Sequence record: PX969468.1
From: a phage
Length of the DNA: 64,000 bases
Strand: one strand, 5' to 3'
Of the stretch, positions 2,730 to 59,551 are shown piece by piece. Both the position numbers and the translations under genes were made by a program. Every line of letters starts with the position of its first letter. The first letter of the stretch is position 1. The notes under the pieces were generated by a model. That model saw only the letters and a list, made by a program, of their open reading frames with translations, did no database searches and was not told the origin of the DNA.

Positions 2730-4220
2730 GTGGCTAAGTATGGATTGACAGAGGCTGGTTTCGTTATACCAACCCTAAATGACCTAATCGTTGAAACTAA
2801 GCAAAGCCTGATCCGTGCTTTTGGCGAAAACTTCAACGTACAGAGTAACTCCGTTGCAGATAAGCTGACCACTATCTTCAACGAGCGAGAGTATCAACTT
2901 ATTCTTATGGCAGCATCTGTATACGCATCGCAGACGCTGTATGGGGCAGAAGGTATTTACCTGGATGAGCTTCTTGGAAGACAGGGTATTTACCGAAGAG
3001 GCCGTTCTAAATCATCAGGTACCTGCCAGTTGACAATCAACACAACTGTGCCGTACAATATGATTTATGATTCCAAAACTTATACGCTGGACAGTGGCAA
3101 CTTTGTTCTTAGCAACGATGTGCAGGTGGCGGGAAATCTTATTGCTCACAGAATAAACGCTCCAGACCTAAGAATTGGGAAATACAACTTTCAAATTACC
3201 AACCAGACAGACGGAAGTATCAAAACAAAAAGTTTGGTTTTAACAGATAAGGCTCTGGACTCTTCTGATTTGCCAAGCTTTTACGGCGAGATTAAGCAAT
3301 TCATTGTCGATAATACAACCCTGCTGAATGATGATTTAATTCAGATAGATATGTTGACAGGGACGTTGTGGATAGGGTACAATTCGAATCTTGATCAGGT
3401 TGGACTTAATAGCAGGGTAGATTTCAGAGTATCCCCGATTGTAGGGGAAAGAACTATCACCCTAGATGTTATCGCTAACGAGGCTGGTGAGCTGTCAAGA
3501 GAGGCAGAAACCGTGACAACAATGTCACCTACTCCCAGCGGATTTATCAAGCTTACCAACCGAGAAAGATTCAATGAGGGTAGGGATGTTGAGAAAGACT
3601 CTGAGTATCGCTTAAGAGCTTCCAGCACTAAACAGCTGACATCTAAAGCTACCCGTCCTGCAATCCTTAGCGCTGTAAGCGAGGTGAAAGGTGTTGAAAA
3701 AGTAAGAGTGTTCTCTAACAACACCGATAAAACGGATGTGAAAGGTATACCACCTTATAAGTTTCAAGTGGTGGTGTTTGGTGGTGCAACAGAGGATATC
3801 TGTCAGGCGCTGTATCAAACCATAGCTTGCACAAACAGAACTTATGGGAATATCTTCTACGATATTACCACATCAGACGGTCAGACTGAAAGGATTTATT
3901 ACTCCAAGGCAAATACCTACCGCCTAGATGTAAGAATTACCTACTCAGGTGCTGCGCTTTCCACAACCGAAAAAGATGCCATTGTAGAGGCTCTTTTGCA
4001 GGTTGTTAACGGACTGGATGTTGCAGATACGTTGTACAATATCCAATTGGTTGGTGCTGCATCGGCTGCTGTGTCAATAGGCAGATTTAACAGACTTGTA
4101 ATTCAAGTCAAACCTGTGGGGGCCTCTGATGAAGCTTACACTACAAACGATATTGTTGCAAACATGACTGAGGTGTTTGACCTAGACGAAAGTAATATAA
4201 CTTTCCAACAAACTATTTAA
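2730..4220 (+). CDS. Virion structural protein (tail/baseplate region), function unassigned
   Basis: 496-aa ORF, GGAGG RBS, GTG start; sits inside tail-fibre module. Confidence 0.6.
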   Translation: MAKYGLTEAGFVIPTLNDLIVETKQSLIRAFGENFNVQSNSVADKLTTIFNEREYQLILMAASVYASQTLYGAEGIYLDELLGRQGIYRRGRSKSSGTCQLTINTTVPYNMIYDSKTYTLDSGNFVLSNDVQVAGNLIAHRINAPDLRIGKYNFQITNQTDGSIKTKSLVLTDKALDSSDLPSFYGEIKQFIVDNTTLLNDDLIQIDMLTGTLWIGYNSNLDQVGLNSRVDFRVSPIVGERTITLDVIANEAGELSREAETVTTMSPTPSGFIKLTNRERFNEGRDVEKDSEYRLRASSTKQLTSKATRPAILSAVSEVKGVEKVRVFSNNTDKTDVKGIPPYKFQVVVFGGATEDICQALYQTIACTNRTYGNIFYDITTSDGQTERIYYSKANTYRLDVRITYSGAALSTTEKDAIVEALLQVVNGLDVADTLYNIQLVGAASAAVSIGRFNRLVIQVKPVGASDEAYTTNDIVANMTEVFDLDESNITFQQTI

Positions 4221-50627: not shown

Positions 50628-50639
50628 GATATTTATGGT

Positions 50640-51250
50640 GGTATTTATTTTAAAATTATAAAAATTTTAGGTGATGAGGGAAAATATGTAATGGATTTTC
50701 CCTTATTTATCAGATATTTGCAGATATTTGGAAATCCTTAGAAAATCAGAAAATGGATCGAAAACTAAAATGGATTTTTCAGAGTAGGCGCGACAAGCTG
50801 AATAACTCATCCTATCGTTTGCACCATATTCCAGGCCACCATTATAGATTTCCCACACATGCTAACCTCCCTCTACTAGAACTTCCTCCACTTACCCTTG
50901 ACCTTCTATGGTAACAATCTAACCACTATCTTGAAGTTGCGGTGCAGCTTTCCAGGTACTCGATCTACTTTTCATTTCAGGGCTTGGATTTTCTGAAAAT
51001 TTTTCTCGATAAATTTCTCAGTACTCGATCTGTTTTTCGTTTTCTGAATCGGATTTTCTGGAAATCGTTCCGGATCTAGGCCTGAAATTTTTAGGGACGA
51101 AATCGATTTTTCGTTTTCAGAAATGGATTTTTAAAATTTCTATATGGGAATATTTTAGTGGATACTATTTTATAGGAAATTGTTACGGAGGGTAATTAGC
51201 GTGCTAATTAAATTTATTAAATGCGAGGAGTTCTCATTTAGAATTTTGAA
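50640..51250. repeat. AT-rich non-coding region with short direct repeats (origin-like)
   Basis: AAATGGATTTTTC / GGATTTTCTG copies, tandem CAGATATTTG x2, GTACTCGATCT x2, GATTTTTCGTTTTC x2. Confidence 0.6.
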
Positions 51251-51278
51251 TGATAATCATTCTCGTTTGCAGAATAAC

Positions 51279-51308
51279 GGGCAGGCCCGGTGATTGTCTC
51301 CCGGCCCC
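51279..51308. repeat. Left copy of 25-bp inverted repeat GGCAGGCC(C/T)GGTGATTGTCTCCC
   Basis: Matches reverse complement of 61065-61089 at 23/25 positions; partial third copy at 51419-51437. Confidence 0.7.
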
Positions 51309-51675
51309 TACTGCCCCGGCTTGTTATTATAGTAACACACAGGACAAAGAAAGCAAGAAGTTTTTGCATAAATTTTTAGACGATAATGATAATCGTTCTC
51401 ATTTCATGCAGCGCCCATCCCCGGTGGTTGTCTCCCCCGTCACCGGTGCCTGCCGTCCTTTCGATATGTATATTGTGCCACCTGGCGGGGCCGCTGTCAA
51501 CACTTTTCAAAAAATTTTTTCTAACCTGATGCGCTAACCGCTGCAACCTGGCGGGGCCAGCCTGGCAGGACCTAACTGACCAGGTAGGGGAGAATGAAGG
51601 CTTGCAAACCTGGTGGGCCTATGCTATAGGATAGGTAACAATTGAAGAGGAGGTACAAAAAATGAAAGGTAATAT

Positions 51676-52597: not shown

Positions 52598-52654
52598 TTG
52601 ACACGCTGCAAAATTAAAGTAAACTAGACACAAAAGGCGGGAATGTTTCCCGCC
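52598..52654 (+). promoter_or_regulatory. Early promoter plus 5'-leader GC hairpin
   Basis: TTGACA-N16/17-TAAACT, then GGCGGGAA-TGT-TTCCCGCC hairpin, CA-rich spacer, SD, ATG 52675. Confidence 0.55.
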
Positions 52655-52674: not shown

Positions 52675-53070
52675 ATGAATAAGAACGTACGCCGCATCAT
52701 GAACGAACTGGCAAACGATGAAAAAATTATTGATATGCATTTGGTAAACATTTGCCGCCGTTGTGTAACATATAACAACCGCGCCGCAAAAGCGCGTGAG
52801 ATGAACGCAAAAGGCACCTTAAAGCCCTTTCAGGTGGTTGTAAAATCTATAACCAGTGCAGCAGGCCAGGCGCATGACCACAACAACGGGAGCACTAATA
52901 TTGATCCGTCTTACGTAATGAAACGGATCCGGACTTGCAAGAATAAAGAGCAGGTGTATAACGTCATAGATTGGCTGGACTCCCTGGGCGATGTGGTTTA
53001 TAATAGGTTTTCTGCAGCTATCGAGATCCAGCTTGACAGACTGGACGGGAAAGTACTGAAAACTTACTAA
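52675..53070 (+). CDS. Early-region protein (131 aa)
   Basis: RBS AAAGGAAAAAAG; own promoter and leader hairpin. Confidence 0.55.
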   Translation: MNKNVRRIMNELANDEKIIDMHLVNICRRCVTYNNRAAKAREMNAKGTLKPFQVVVKSITSAAGQAHDHNNGSTNIDPSYVMKRIRTCKNKEQVYNVIDWLDSLGDVVYNRFSAAIEIQLDRLDGKVLKTY

Positions 53071-53082
53071 GTTTATTTTTAG

Positions 53083-53119
53083 ATGGCCTTGACGCCAGGG
53101 CCATCAATAAAGTAAACTA
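53083..53119 (+). promoter_or_regulatory. Palindrome-embedded promoter element, copy 1
   Basis: GATGGCC-TTGACGCCAG-GGCCATC with -35 TTGACG in the centre and TAAACT at -10. Confidence 0.6.
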
Positions 53120-53149: not shown

Positions 53150-53269
53150 ATGAGCACTACACGCCAGCACACAAAGGTAACTATTATCGTTTGCATCATT
53201 GGTTATATCCTGGCGCAAATGTTGATGGGTAGCGCCAACGGTGTCGCAAAATTTTTCTTAAACTTTTAA
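53150..53269 (+). CDS. Possible small hydrophobic peptide (39 aa)
   Basis: ATG after AAAAGGAGG immediately downstream of palindromic promoter; TM-like core. Confidence 0.4.
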   Translation: MSTTRQHTKVTIIVCIIGYILAQMLMGSANGVAKFFLNF

Positions 53270-53324
53270 TTGACAAGCTAACTTAGATCGGTATACTAAA
53301 CACATCAACGGGAAAACTTCCCAG
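53270..53324 (+). promoter_or_regulatory. Early promoter plus 5'-leader hairpin
   Basis: TTGACA-N16-TATACT, then GGGAA-AAC-TTCCC hairpin. Confidence 0.6.
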
Positions 53325-53347
53325 AACACACAAAAGGAGAAAACACC

Positions 53348-53689
53348 ATGACCACTATGACCGCCGCAGAAAAAGCTATTCAGATCGCTGCCCTGAAAAA
53401 ACAGATCGCAGACCTTGAGAATAAGATCGATAACTTTGAAATCGACGAGGACAAGTACGACGAAAACTATGATGAATGGTTAGACGAGATCTACGGCGAA
53501 ATTATGATCGGAAACATTTCTTTTCTTCCGTCGCGTATCCTCAAGGAGCTAGATCCTATCGCTTACCGCTGCGGATTTAGCGACTACATCGACAGCCTGG
53601 ATATTGAGGACGATGAAGAATACCAGGAATTACAGACAGAGTTGGAAGAAGCAAAAGAAGAGCTTGCGGAGCTGGAAGAAAACGAGTAA
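53348..53689 (+). CDS. Early-region highly acidic protein (113 aa)
   Basis: RBS AAAGGAGA; Asp/Glu-rich throughout. Confidence 0.55.
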   Translation: MTTMTAAEKAIQIAALKKQIADLENKIDNFEIDEDKYDENYDEWLDEIYGEIMIGNISFLPSRILKELDPIAYRCGFSDYIDSLDIEDDEEYQELQTELEEAKEELAELEENE

Positions 53690-53702
53690 GATTATTTTTA
53701 GA

Positions 53703-53738
53703 TGGCCTTGACTCCAGGGCCATCAATAAAGTAAACTT
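53703..53738 (+). promoter_or_regulatory. Palindrome-embedded promoter element, copy 2
   Basis: GATGGCC-TTGACTCCAG-GGCCATC then ATAAAGTAAACT. Confidence 0.6.
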
Positions 53739-53778: not shown

Positions 53779-54024
53779 ATGGCAGCACTAATCACTAAAT
53801 ATTACGCCCCTACCAACACCAAAAGCGCCCGTATCATGGTAAAAGGCTTCGGACGTAAAAAGGTTTACACCTGGGATTATGCCTTAGACATGGAAGACAA
53901 CTACACCAACGCGATGACAGATTTTATTAATGAGCTGAACACGCGGATCTTGACAAATTATAAAATTACCGATATTGCCTATATAGGGGAAGGCGGGATC
54001 TGTTTTGTCGGTATCGTCAAATAA
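53779..54024 (+). CDS. Early-region protein (81 aa)
   Basis: RBS TAGGAG. Confidence 0.5.
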   Translation: MAALITKYYAPTNTKSARIMVKGFGRKKVYTWDYALDMEDNYTNAMTDFINELNTRILTNYKITDIAYIGEGGICFVGIVK

Positions 54025-54100
54025 ACTGTTTTTTCGGTGGTCCTGGTAGCAGGGCCATCTATAAAGATAGTTTATCAATACAATGAAAGGAGAAAGTAAC

Positions 54101-54884: not shown

Positions 54885-55145
54885 ATGCGTAAATTAAAAA
54901 ATTTTGATAAAGTTGATATTGTCCTGAATAATTTTTACTACTGCAATAACAAGGCCGTTTGGTGGCGTGATAGTTCCACCGATAAAGTCAAGGCGCGCTT
55001 TCTCCAGGGGCACTGGCAAGGCCGCCCAGTGATTAAAATCATGGGGCAATTGGTAGCGTTTAAAAATTGCCGCCGTGTTGATGACGTTGAAGAGATTTTA
55101 AACATTTTGCGCCACAATAATTTAAAAAATAGTGTTGACAAGTAA
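54885..55145 (+). CDS. Early-region protein (86 aa)
   Basis: RBS AAGGAG; promoter-like TTGACA-N16-TATACT at 54827-54856. Confidence 0.5.
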   Translation: MRKLKNFDKVDIVLNNFYYCNNKAVWWRDSSTDKVKARFLQGHWQGRPVIKIMGQLVAFKNCRRVDDVEEILNILRHNNLKNSVDK

Positions 55146-55191
55146 ATCTCAATAAGTATAATTAAAAACACAGGCGGGAAAACTTCCCGCC
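55135..55191 (+). promoter_or_regulatory. Early promoter (overlapping upstream stop) plus leader hairpin
   Basis: TTGACA-N16-TATAAT, then GGCGGGAA-AAC-TTCCCGCC hairpin. Confidence 0.65.
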
Positions 55192-55219: not shown

Positions 55220-55843
55220 ATGACCACCGTTAACATTACCACAGGTTACAATTTAGCTTTCGACGTGCTGACCGACGAACAAAAAGAAAAAGCCGTGGAA
55301 ATGGTCCGCGAAAGAGAAGAACACAGCGGGGATAACTTTTTTGCAGAAAGTGTAATTGAGTACTATAAAGAATATATCTTTCCAGAGTACGGCCTTGAAG
55401 ATACCGATGTACATTGGTCAGGCTTTTGGTGCCAGGGTGACGGCGCGTCAATCAGTGCGGAAAACGTGGATTTAGAAAAATTCTTGCGTAAAGTCAAGTC
55501 TCTGACTAAATTCCGCTCAATTCGTCACTTGTTCGGCACAATGCACGATGGCGAGTTATCCGCAAGTGTTGAGCGTGATCCATATAGCCGCTATAGTCAC
55601 GAAAACACTGTAAACGGATACATCGATACTACATGGCTAGACCTGACCACCAAACAAGAAAACAAAGTGGAAGATCTGGAAGAGCTGATCACCGAGACGG
55701 TACGGGAGTTATCCCGCAAGGTTTACGTAGACCTGGAGGAAGCCTATCTTGAACAATTCACCGCCGAAAACTTGATCGGCCTTATCGAGGCCAATGATTG
55801 GCGGTTTGATGTCGATGAACACGGTGAGATGACTTTTTCATAA
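55220..55843 (+). CDS. Early-region acidic protein (207 aa)
   Basis: RBS CAGGAGAAAA; own promoter and leader hairpin. Confidence 0.55.
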   Translation: MTTVNITTGYNLAFDVLTDEQKEKAVEMVREREEHSGDNFFAESVIEYYKEYIFPEYGLEDTDVHWSGFWCQGDGASISAENVDLEKFLRKVKSLTKFRSIRHLFGTMHDGELSASVERDPYSRYSHENTVNGYIDTTWLDLTTKQENKVEDLEELITETVRELSRKVYVDLEEAYLEQFTAENLIGLIEANDWRFDVDEHGEMTFS

Positions 55844-55931: not shown

Positions 55932-56312
55932 ATGAAAAACACTACTAAAGCTATTGACACCGTTATGTTTAACCTGGTTACATTCCGTGAAGATATGAAA
56001 GATCTTCCACGTGAAACAGTGTGCGATCACATTGAAAACTATCGCAAACTAATCAAAGAGTTGCCTTTAAAACGTGACCAGTATGCGGCTAACGCTATGC
56101 TTAACGCCATGATCAAAAAGATGATTCAGTGTGATTTAACTCTGGCCTATGATTATGCAGGTGGTCGTTTTGCAGTATACAATCAGCCCGTGCCTGGTAT
56201 GAGCACCACCGAAGAATTGCACGCGTTAAATCTGAAACAAGATGTATGGGATAACATGCCCCGCGTGGTGGTGTGGGCAGAAAGCGGAAAGATTTACGGC
56301 GATAATTTTTAA
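55932..56312 (+). CDS. Early-region protein (126 aa)
   Basis: promoter TTGCAA-N16-TATATT upstream, hairpin GGGGCAA..TTGCCCC, RBS AGAGG. Confidence 0.55.
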   Translation: MKNTTKAIDTVMFNLVTFREDMKDLPRETVCDHIENYRKLIKELPLKRDQYAANAMLNAMIKKMIQCDLTLAYDYAGGRFAVYNQPVPGMSTTEELHALNLKQDVWDNMPRVVVWAESGKIYGDNF

Positions 56313-57225: not shown

Positions 57226-57426
57226 ATGAGCAACAATATCCGCGTTATTAACTTCAAAAAAGAAGAAAAAATTGCCGTGCTGATTGACGGTCAAGAAATC
57301 TTCAAGGGCGACTATGAAGATCATCAAACGGCGATTAGTATCACTCGCGTGATTGGTTATCATAATTTCTACCCCCAAGGCGCTGAGGCAGCAGTTAAAC
57401 GAATCAAAGAGATTGTAGGCCTGTAA
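57226..57426 (+). CDS. Early-region protein (66 aa)
   Basis: promoter TTGCAA-N17-GATAAT upstream, hairpin GGGGA..TCCCC, RBS AAGGAGA. Confidence 0.5.
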   Translation: MSNNIRVINFKKEEKIAVLIDGQEIFKGDYEDHQTAISITRVIGYHNFYPQGAEAAVKRIKEIVGL

Positions 57427-57438
57427 AATTTATTTTTA

Positions 57439-57475
57439 GATGGCCTTGACTTCAGGGCCATCGATAAAGTAAATT
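57439..57475 (+). promoter_or_regulatory. Palindrome-embedded promoter element, copy 3
   Basis: GATGGCC-TTGACTTCAG-GGCCATC then GATAAAGTAAATT. Confidence 0.6.
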
Positions 57476-59038: not shown

Positions 59039-59218
59039 ATGGCTATTATTGCAAAGACTGAGATCGTAGGCTTAGATTCTATTCTCCTCGCATATGAGGA
59101 AGCTATAGAAATGTATGTGGTTTCCTATGGTGAGTATATCCGTGAATATAAATCTATTGATCTGGCTTTTGAATGTTATATCCGCCAGGTTAATAAAGCG
59201 TACGATGATTATCGTTAA
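59039..59218 (+). CDS. Possible early-region protein (59 aa), below ORF-track cutoff
   Basis: promoter TTGACA-N16-TAATAT at 58968, leader hairpin, RBS AGAGGA. Confidence 0.4.
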   Translation: MAIIAKTEIVGLDSILLAYEEAIEMYVVSYGEYIREYKSIDLAFECYIRQVNKAYDDYR

Positions 59219-59224
59219 AATAGT

Positions 59225-59253
59225 TTGACAACAGCCATCTTACAAAGCATAAT
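59225..59253 (+). promoter_or_regulatory. sigma70-like early promoter
   Basis: TTGACA, 17-nt spacer, CATAAT; followed by GGCGG..CCGCC leader hairpin. Confidence 0.6.
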
Positions 59254-59305
59254 ACATAAGGCGGTGGAATGGTCCGCCACCTGGAACAAAGAAGAGGTAA
59301 ACACC

Positions 59306-59551
59306 ATGAAAAGCAATAAAGGTTATAACGGTTACAAAAACAAAACTCATTGGAATGTAAGCCTTTGGATTAATAACGATGAGTCATTGTACCGGTTGGC
59401 CCAAGGCTTTATTAACGCCAATGCTAATCGTAATGATGCGGCGCGGGATATGATGCTTTTTCTGGAGCTAACCGGACAAGATAAGACCCCGGACGGCTTC
59501 AAGTACAGCACTACGGCGATCCGTGCCGCGATGGTTGGAATGAAACACTAA
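59306..59551 (+). CDS. Early-region protein (81 aa)
   Basis: ATG after AGAAGAGG; track ORF start 59225 lies in promoter. Confidence 0.5.
   Translation: MKSNKGYNGYKNKTHWNVSLWINNDESLYRLAQGFINANANRNDAARDMMLFLELTGQDKTPDGFKYSTTAIRAAMVGMKH

Follow-up and report, generated by a model that had tools for sequence, protein, structure and literature searches.

A large family of small, strongly acidic phage proteins with a conserved core, candidate DNA mimics carried by Vequintaviruses and other phages

The acidic gene of a Vequintavirus and its surroundings

The window analysed here is a 64,000-nucleotide stretch of phage DNA (sequence record PX969468.1), in which positions 53348-53689 (+ strand) hold the coding sequence of a 113-aa acidic protein of the PHROG 9294 family. 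The gene is a member of a one-directional block of small genes of a Vequintavirus, the Vequintaviruses being rV5-like Escherichia coli myophages with genomes of about 136 kb. The strongly acidic character claimed for this reading frame in an earlier note on the same DNA is borne out by its translation, which reads as quoted there: 35 of the 113 residues (31%) are Asp or Glu and 9 are Lys or Arg, giving a net charge of -26 and a pI of 4.05. Among the 188 ATG-initiated open reading frames of at least 50 aa in the 64-kb window, no other is as acidic, the runner-up having 24% Asp/Glu. The surrounding 4-kb stretch is 94-98% identical to more than 110 Vequintavirus genomes (top match, phage A6-1, 97.8%); orthologues of the gene are found in more than 110 Vequintavirus genomes, essentially all Vequintaviruses carry one, and every annotated orthologue is labelled “hypothetical protein”. 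The protein matches PHROG 9294 (function unknown) with E=1.3e-53, residues 1-113 aligning with profile positions 1-119 of 127, and comparison with the orthologue of phage Gotham yields a pN/pS of 0.12. Given this match, the orthologues and the pN/pS value, the gene is real and under purifying selection.

A sigma-70-type promoter (TTGACA-16 nt-TATACT, 53270-53297, + strand) lies upstream of the gene. The strong promoter of its own that the earlier note assigned to the gene is near-consensus, matching at 11 of 12 positions, and PhagePromoter places a promoter at the orthologous position of phage Gotham (4266-4293 of locus L001). The Shine-Dalgarno sequence AAGGAG (53334-53339, + strand), as read from the sequence, is located 8 nt 5' of the ATG, and the block formed by the ribosome-binding site and the start recurs at other genes (repeat family D6). 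The leader hairpin described in the same note exists (GGGAA-AAC-TTCCC, 53310-53322, + strand), but it is short and weak, with 5 bp, -5.9 kcal/mol and a z-score of -1.6, and 16 of 200 shuffled sequences fold equally well. It is a degenerate copy of an 8-bp G+C hairpin, GGCGGGAA...TTCCCGCC, present at 52636-52654 and 55173-55191 (repeat family D2), a few bases 3' of strong sigma-70 promoters. These two copies fold at -14.6 kcal/mol (z-scores of -3.5 and -4.7), with 0 shuffled sequences as good, and may be 5'-end stabilisers of early mRNAs.

At the stop codon of the acidic gene begins a 51-nt intergenic hairpin cassette (53687-53737, + strand), one of four copies of repeat family D1 in the window (53068-53118, 53687-53737, 54022-54072 and 57425-57475), each of which begins at or just past a stop codon. 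The two copies that were folded form a long hairpin (-24 and -20 kcal/mol, z-scores of -7.8 and -4.9, the latter values being those of 53687-53737). Stem and loop of the cassette contain a -35-like TTGAC(G/T) and, 18 nt further on, TAAACT; behind the acidic gene this -35/-10-like pair reads TTGACT-18-TAAACT. The cassette was rejected as a canonical terminator because no U-run is present 3' of the stem; it resembles T4-type phage promoter-early stem-loop cassettes or T7 RNase III processing sites.

Several other elements are found in the vicinity. A 39-aa hydrophobic mini-ORF (MSTTRQHTKVTIIVCIIGYILAQMLMG..., 53151-53269, + strand), annotated as a CDS in phage Gotham, is located directly upstream, between a hairpin cassette and the promoter of the acidic gene. 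A stretch of about 1 kb (50630-51620) is without a convincing open reading frame and contains three direct repeats of about 47-62 nt each with a spacing of 65-74 nt (50946-51131), as well as two copies of a 20-nt repeat, at 51249 and 51385; neither there nor near the acidic gene was a tRNA or an Rfam family found. A second acidic protein, likewise of a presumably early gene (55220-55843, + strand; 207 aa, 22% Asp/Glu, net charge -25), has its own consensus promoter (TTGACA-16-TATAAT, 55135-55162) and belongs to PHROG 5162 (function unknown); it has no Pfam match and is missing from phage PaulScherrer. The sigma-70 promoters and the gene block suggest that the 113-aa protein is expressed early.

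Predicted architecture and conserved residues

AlphaFold2 modelling with the family alignment (pLDDT 89) predicts three parts. An amphipathic N-terminal helix of mixed charge (aa 6-28, 53363-53431, + strand), supported by the predicted secondary structure and the column statistics and bearing a heptad Ile/Leu stripe, is followed by a conserved core domain (aa 30-88, 53435-53611, + strand) made up of a helix (34-49), a beta-hairpin (52-59) and two further helices (61-68 and 70-83), and by a C-terminal acidic helix (aa 90-111, 53615-53680, + strand) with Leu/Tyr at heptad positions a and d and Glu/Asp almost everywhere else. The helical, coiled-coil character that had been predicted in the earlier note agrees with this model, in which the first and last helices bear regular heptad Ile/Leu stripes. 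The model is confident and looks rigid, and the core modelled alone has an unchanged secondary structure (pLDDT 88); the predicted core looks like a new small fold. A GreA/DksA-like secondary-channel reading was rejected, since it is the termini, not a tip loop, that close the coiled coil.

The best-conserved part of the protein is this compact, folded core and not the acidic tail. Its motif, YDxxLDExYGxVxIxGxxFxxSRxLKELDPIAYRCGFSDYxD, spans aa 41-82 (about 45 residues); D69, Y73 and D79 do not vary among 39 sequences, and in a set of 141 sequences L65, D69, A72 and D79 reach at least 90% conservation. Acidic character is kept at E31, D39, E43, D46, E47, D69, D79, D82 and D85, as well as at nearly all non-core positions (b, c, e, f and g) of the C-terminal helix, and K66 and R74 are the only conserved basic positions. 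Helix 34-49 contains four Asp/Glu pairs placed four residues apart (ED..DE..DE..DE; a DExxDExxDExxDE stripe, aa 34-47), which by their spacing should form one continuous acidic stripe on the helix. The 219 homologues have medians of 31% for Asp/Glu content and -27 for net charge. Extensions at the two termini differ among members and include coiled coils, Zn-ribbon-like CPICG tails and non-helical acidic tails; even in relatives with non-coiled-coil tails, the sequence closes with acidic runs. Some members (P0054-56, P0197 and P0217) consist of the core only, at 64-71 aa, without the coiled coil. Cores from phages of E. coli, Pseudomonas, Vibrio and Actinobacteria and from marine contigs are about 40-65% identical to one another.

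Family size, host range and database names

A word-indexed search retrieved 71 relatives of the acidic protein, and a profile search of 1.84 billion cluster representatives identified 3,950 at E<=1e-3 and 1,792 at E<=1e-10, so that the family size of about 3,950 is a count of 50%-identity clusters at E<=1e-3. A second profile search returned 1,048 proteins at E<=1e-5. Members are mostly 100-130 aa long (median 118 aa in the 219 retrieved) and are encoded by phages of Proteobacteria and Actinobacteria and by marine viral contigs. Cultured carriers comprise the Vequintaviruses, large myophages of Klebsiella, Citrobacter, Serratia and Salmonella, Vibrio phages, Pseudomonas PAK_P-type phages, T7-like phages of Providencia, Proteus and Pseudomonas putida, and phages of Stenotrophomonas, Clavibacter, Microbacterium and Gordonia; marine TARA contigs encode a 64-aa core-only form. 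A tblastn search of 72,556 plasmid records found no family member except in the 137.5-kb record CP057073.1, evidently a mis-filed Vequintavirus genome.

No source, including the 1,048 proteins at E<=1e-5, provides a functional name for any family member. An E. coli entry of the acidic protein is named “gas vesicle protein GvpG” on account of a weak coiled-coil match; the entries P0035 and P0027, like the plasmid record CP057073.1, are database artefacts. The source names GvpG, SbcCD ATPase, Zn-ribbon and chromosome segregation ATPase were accordingly discarded as automatic coiled-coil labels, the remaining entries being “hypothetical”. A literature search returned nothing on the acidic protein and nothing on anti-restriction in Vequintaviruses, and a BFVD search matched uncharacterised phage proteins only.

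Seven metagenomic proteins of 211-837 aa (P0084, P0089, P0093, P0112, P0114, P0129 and P0169) start with two tandem family cores, followed by unrelated modules with recurring AE(T/S)FGA(E/D) linkers between them; several have a hydrophobic, membrane-anchor-like C-terminal stretch, which gives a polyprotein-like layout. One further family member is fused to Kyano_Gp96, whose function is likewise unknown. As the long marine tandem-core proteins contain no Pfam domains, the fusion partners were set aside as uninformative about function.

Genomic context of the homologues

In the Providencia phage PS3 (Kakivirus), two paralogues, gp02 and gp05, are encoded at the left end of the genome, behind annotated sigma-70 promoters and before the primase gene. 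They occupy positions 1683-1886 and 2931-3131 (locus L002), within the first 3.2 kb of a 41-kb T7-like genome, and the first of them is located directly 3' of an annotated sigma-70 promoter. In the Pseudomonas phage Kompost-2 (Ghunavirus), the homologue is the sixth gene before the RNA polymerase gene. The early regions of PS3 and Kompost-2 contain no match to the Ocr family of Pfam. The homologue of PAK_P5 (gp086) is found among small hypothetical genes, and in its relative PAK_P4 a comparable block, gp080-gp124, is transcribed early (PMC5563952), which is consistent, by analogy, with early expression of the family.

The neighbours that recur in 80 IMG/VR loci are small open reading frames of the same orientation, without a PHROG function and at variable distance, and the distances to the contig ends display no upstream or downstream bias by eye. 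Apart from the homologue itself, no gene is common to the T7-like, PAK_P5 and marine loci. Guilt by association failed accordingly, with no informative common neighbour in the 80 viral and six other loci; the absence of a conserved neighbour from these loci suggests that the acidic protein acts without a dedicated partner gene, as a stand-alone module.

Comparison with known DNA mimics and other families

T7 Ocr (gp0.3) is a DNA-mimic inhibitor of type I restriction-modification and BREX. It consists of 117 aa with 34 Asp/Glu, a net charge of -28 and a pI of 4.05, compared with 113 aa, 35 Asp/Glu, -26 and 4.05 for the acidic protein; both are phage-only proteins encoded behind host promoters, apparently early, with an acidic tail at the end. 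The dense Asp/Glu content and low pI of DNA mimics as a class are thus present in the acidic protein (31% Asp/Glu, net charge -26, pI 4.05) and family-wide. Homology is another matter: the acidic protein does not match the Pfam ocr profile (PF08684) at E<=1, a negative result given meaning by the positive control, in which T7 Ocr matches PF08684 at 1.3e-64, and hhalign comparison of T7 Ocr with the family alignment gives a probability of 0.2%. Ocr is an all-helical dimer without a beta-hairpin core; it is not among the fold matches of the acidic protein, and the all-helical dimer of bent B-DNA shape was not recovered for the latter.

T7 gp5.9, which blocks RecBCD, is an acidic coiled-coil DNA mimic and, like the acidic protein, a small acidic helical coiled-coil phage protein; it demonstrates that an acidic coiled coil can mimic DNA. 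The anti-restriction proteins ArdA (PF07275) and ArdB/KlcA of plasmids and transposons, also acidic, are directed against type I restriction-modification early upon entry; the acidic protein has no Pfam match to either, and its family is missing from plasmids, where ArdA-type mimics occur. T4 Arn is an acidic phage DNA mimic, and the targets of SPO1 Gp44/Gp46 and T4 Arn include RNA polymerase, HU and McrBC/H-NS. These proteins are, like the acidic protein, small, acidic and early, and they illustrate the range of possible targets; they are unrelated to it in sequence, with no PDB sequence or fold match. SPO1 Gp44 and Gp46 are reported to be acidic phage DNA mimics that bind host DNA-binding proteins (PMC8208478, PMC8892312).

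Queried with the single protein as well as with the profile, Pfam, NCBIfam, PADLOC and PDB sequences yielded coiled-coil noise only, which in the case of the PADLOC defence-protein models was LmuB at E ~0.009. Neither Ocr nor ArdA nor any solved DNA mimic turned up as a homologue or a fold match; given that the sequence, profile, BFVD and hhalign searches were negative, the acidic protein appears to belong to no known DNA-mimic family. The model recalls prefoldin beta in that long N- and C-terminal helices run antiparallel around a central beta-hairpin, and the PDB sequence search yielded a weak match to prefoldin beta (E=2.8). The acidic protein itself has no Pfam match to Prefoldin (PF01920 / PF02996), and 6 and 3 of 141 relatives have weak matches (E ~1e-5), which are driven by the coiled coil.

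Restriction phenotype of the carrier phages

Phages of the BASEL collection encode the orthologue at 96-99% identity (for example, bas59_0104), and their restriction phenotypes have been published. The Vequintaviruses Bas48-59 plate on EcoKI with an EOP of 0.22-0.90 in spite of 9-17 sites (PMC8594841, S1 Data, S5 Table) and on EcoCFT_I, with 4-6 sites, with an EOP of 0.50-2.0; on EcoRI and EcoRV, the EOP is ~2e-4 to 2e-3 and 1e-7 to 1e-15, respectively, and type III systems mostly restrict them strongly (PMC8594841). For Bas48-62, that is, the Vequintaviruses and the phi92-like phages, the EOP is 0.14-0.9 on EcoKI, ~0.5-2 on EcoCFT_I and 10^-3 to 10^-15 on type II systems; the authors did not comment on this type-I-specific evasion, to which no gene has been assigned (PMC8594841). 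Among other phages on EcoKI, the siphoviruses Bas10 and Bas11, with 7 sites each, have EOPs of 1.0e-4 and 5.5e-5, Bas12, with 2 sites, 8.7e-3, and P1vir, with 11 sites, ~2e-3 in one experiment; on EcoCFT_I, Bas10 (5 sites), Bas15 (1 site) and Bas17 (2 sites) have EOPs of 8.5e-3, 1.1e-2 and 2.7e-3 (PMC8594841). Most phages of the study were poorly restricted by type I systems; N4, with 7 EcoKI sites, has an EOP of 0.84 (PMC8594841). The 64-kb window contains 6 EcoKI and 2 EcoAI-type sites.

Since Bas48-59 are restricted by type II systems, general DNA modification was excluded as the cause of their type I escape. The carrier phages are, like T7 with Ocr, insensitive to type I and sensitive to type II restriction-modification, and the selective type I escape of the Vequintaviruses is the pattern that Ocr gives T7. 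Type I evasion does not, however, track the family cleanly. The phi92-like phage PaulScherrer (Bas60) plates on EcoKI, with 12 sites, with an EOP of 0.42 and on EcoCFT_I with an EOP of 0.91, and EcoRI and EcoRV abolish its plating (PMC8594841); the family HMM finds no member in its six-frame translation (best E 0.18, compared with 4e-45 for the window), and no small open reading frame of comparable acidity is present. The EcoKI-sensitive Bas10 is likewise without the family according to an HMM search. As PaulScherrer evades EcoKI without a member, the acidic gene need not be what lets this phage group evade type I systems. Few early-block genes are common to the window and PaulScherrer; they include those at 55932-56312 (72% identity), 59039-59218 (97%) and 59225-59551 (61%), all on the + strand, which are rival candidates for type I evasion and for other functions that the two groups share.

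Discussion

An acidic decoy or DNA mimic of new fold is a plausible reading of the acidic protein. As a nucleic-acid-mimicking decoy for a host DNA-binding protein it is possible, at somewhat less than an even chance, with the type I restriction-modification enzyme as the first candidate target, in itself an improbable one. As we infer it, the protein would most likely be made from its own sigma-70 promoter soon after infection and act stoichiometrically, its core (aa 30-88) and acidic helices presenting a rigid, strongly negative, nucleic-acid-like surface. By filling the DNA- or RNA-binding groove of a host protein, this surface would keep that protein off phage DNA; an Ocr-like effect on a type I enzyme would be considered first, and RecBCD-type nucleases, RNA polymerase and nucleoid proteins would come next.

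The candidacy as a DNA mimic that was put forward in the earlier note is supported in part. In its favour are the size, charge and pI, which are essentially those of T7 Ocr, the negative charge conserved position by position in a very large family, and the occurrence of homologues in the early, host-promoter-driven left ends of T7-like phages without an Ocr Pfam match, including the two paralogues of PS3, duplication being a common trait of counter-defence genes. To these are added the near-absence of EcoKI and EcoCFT_I restriction in Vequintaviruses that carry the orthologue and are restricted by type II systems, the rigid-looking model and the stand-alone, presumably early setting of the gene. 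Against it are the failure to find a relationship to any known mimic, the core-only members of 64-71 aa without the coiled coil, the absence of the family from plasmids, the type I escape of PaulScherrer without a member and the weakness of type I systems against the majority of BASEL phages. The placement of the highest conservation in the folded core (D69, Y73 and D79) points to a specifically shaped interface and not to charge mimicry of a generic kind. The BASEL phenotype is compatible with the mimic hypothesis and makes it testable but proves nothing, and a DNA-mimic role can reasonably be regarded as a legitimate candidate, nothing more. The strongest version, in which the protein is the founding member of a large new DNA-mimic counter-defence family with a new core fold and also the cause of the type I insensitivity of Vequintaviruses, is distinctly unlikely.

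The first alternative, somewhat unlikely, is a specific host-takeover adaptor, whose core would bind one highly conserved bacterial protein via D69, Y73, D79, K66 and R74; the partner could be in transcription, replication or RNA turnover, and the only role of the acidic helices would be in solubility, oligomerisation or long-range attraction. The core identity of about 40-65% among phages of distant hosts, which speaks for a broadly conserved bacterial target, is in line with such an adaptor, as are the existence of core-only members, the variation of the extensions (coiled coils, CPICG tails, non-helical acidic tails) and the presence of the gene in essentially all Vequintaviruses, where it is not variable. 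The acidity of the tail is, however, kept even where its sequence and structure are not, which a mere solubility role does not predict. The family is also patchy between sister phage groups, being missing from PaulScherrer and from T7 (no T7-group Escherichia phage is among the homologues listed), a distribution unusual for an essential takeover function.

A phage-internal helper, that is, a prefoldin- or scaffold-like chaperone or regulator that would hold a basic protein of the phage, such as one that binds DNA or is packaged, until needed, is less likely than either a decoy or an adaptor, and indeed very unlikely. The order of helix, beta-hairpin and helix with long antiparallel helices does recall prefoldin beta, and a few members have sub-threshold Pfam matches to Prefoldin or Phage_scaffold, but these matches are coiled-coil noise below the gathering thresholds, 0 phage genes co-occur with the family in the 80 loci, and the gene is found in host-promoter-driven early blocks and not in morphogenesis modules. 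Finally, a chance or non-functional low-complexity reading frame at 53348-53689, to which the biased composition of the C-terminal third might point, has next to no probability and is already refuted by the conservation data (PHROG 9294 at E=1e-53, 3,950 clusters by profile search, pN/pS of 0.12), along with the confident fold prediction.

Few phage counter-defences act as broadly as small acidic decoys of the kind of Ocr, ArdA and gp5.9, and acidic decoys also serve some defence systems as triggers. To our knowledge, each known acidic decoy has a separate fold and a narrow distribution. The acidic protein as a decoy would be an unrelated new version of this known class; as a family, it is entirely uncharacterised and unusually large, far larger than any known decoy family, spread over phages of distant hosts and nameless in databases. 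Its carriers include the rV5 group in the BASEL collection, phages that lend themselves readily to engineering. If the strongest version of the mimic reading is true, it would apply to about 4,000 50%-identity clusters with hosts from enterobacteria to actinobacteria and marine bacteria, and would provide an unrecognised factor behind the insensitivity of the Vequintaviruses, common coliphages, to EcoKI and EcoCFT_I despite 9-17 sites. A mimic would explain why the therapeutically popular phages of this group ignore type I restriction and would offer a new scaffold for the anti-defence toolbox. If the protein is not a mimic, its highly conserved core still indicates a widely shared host target.
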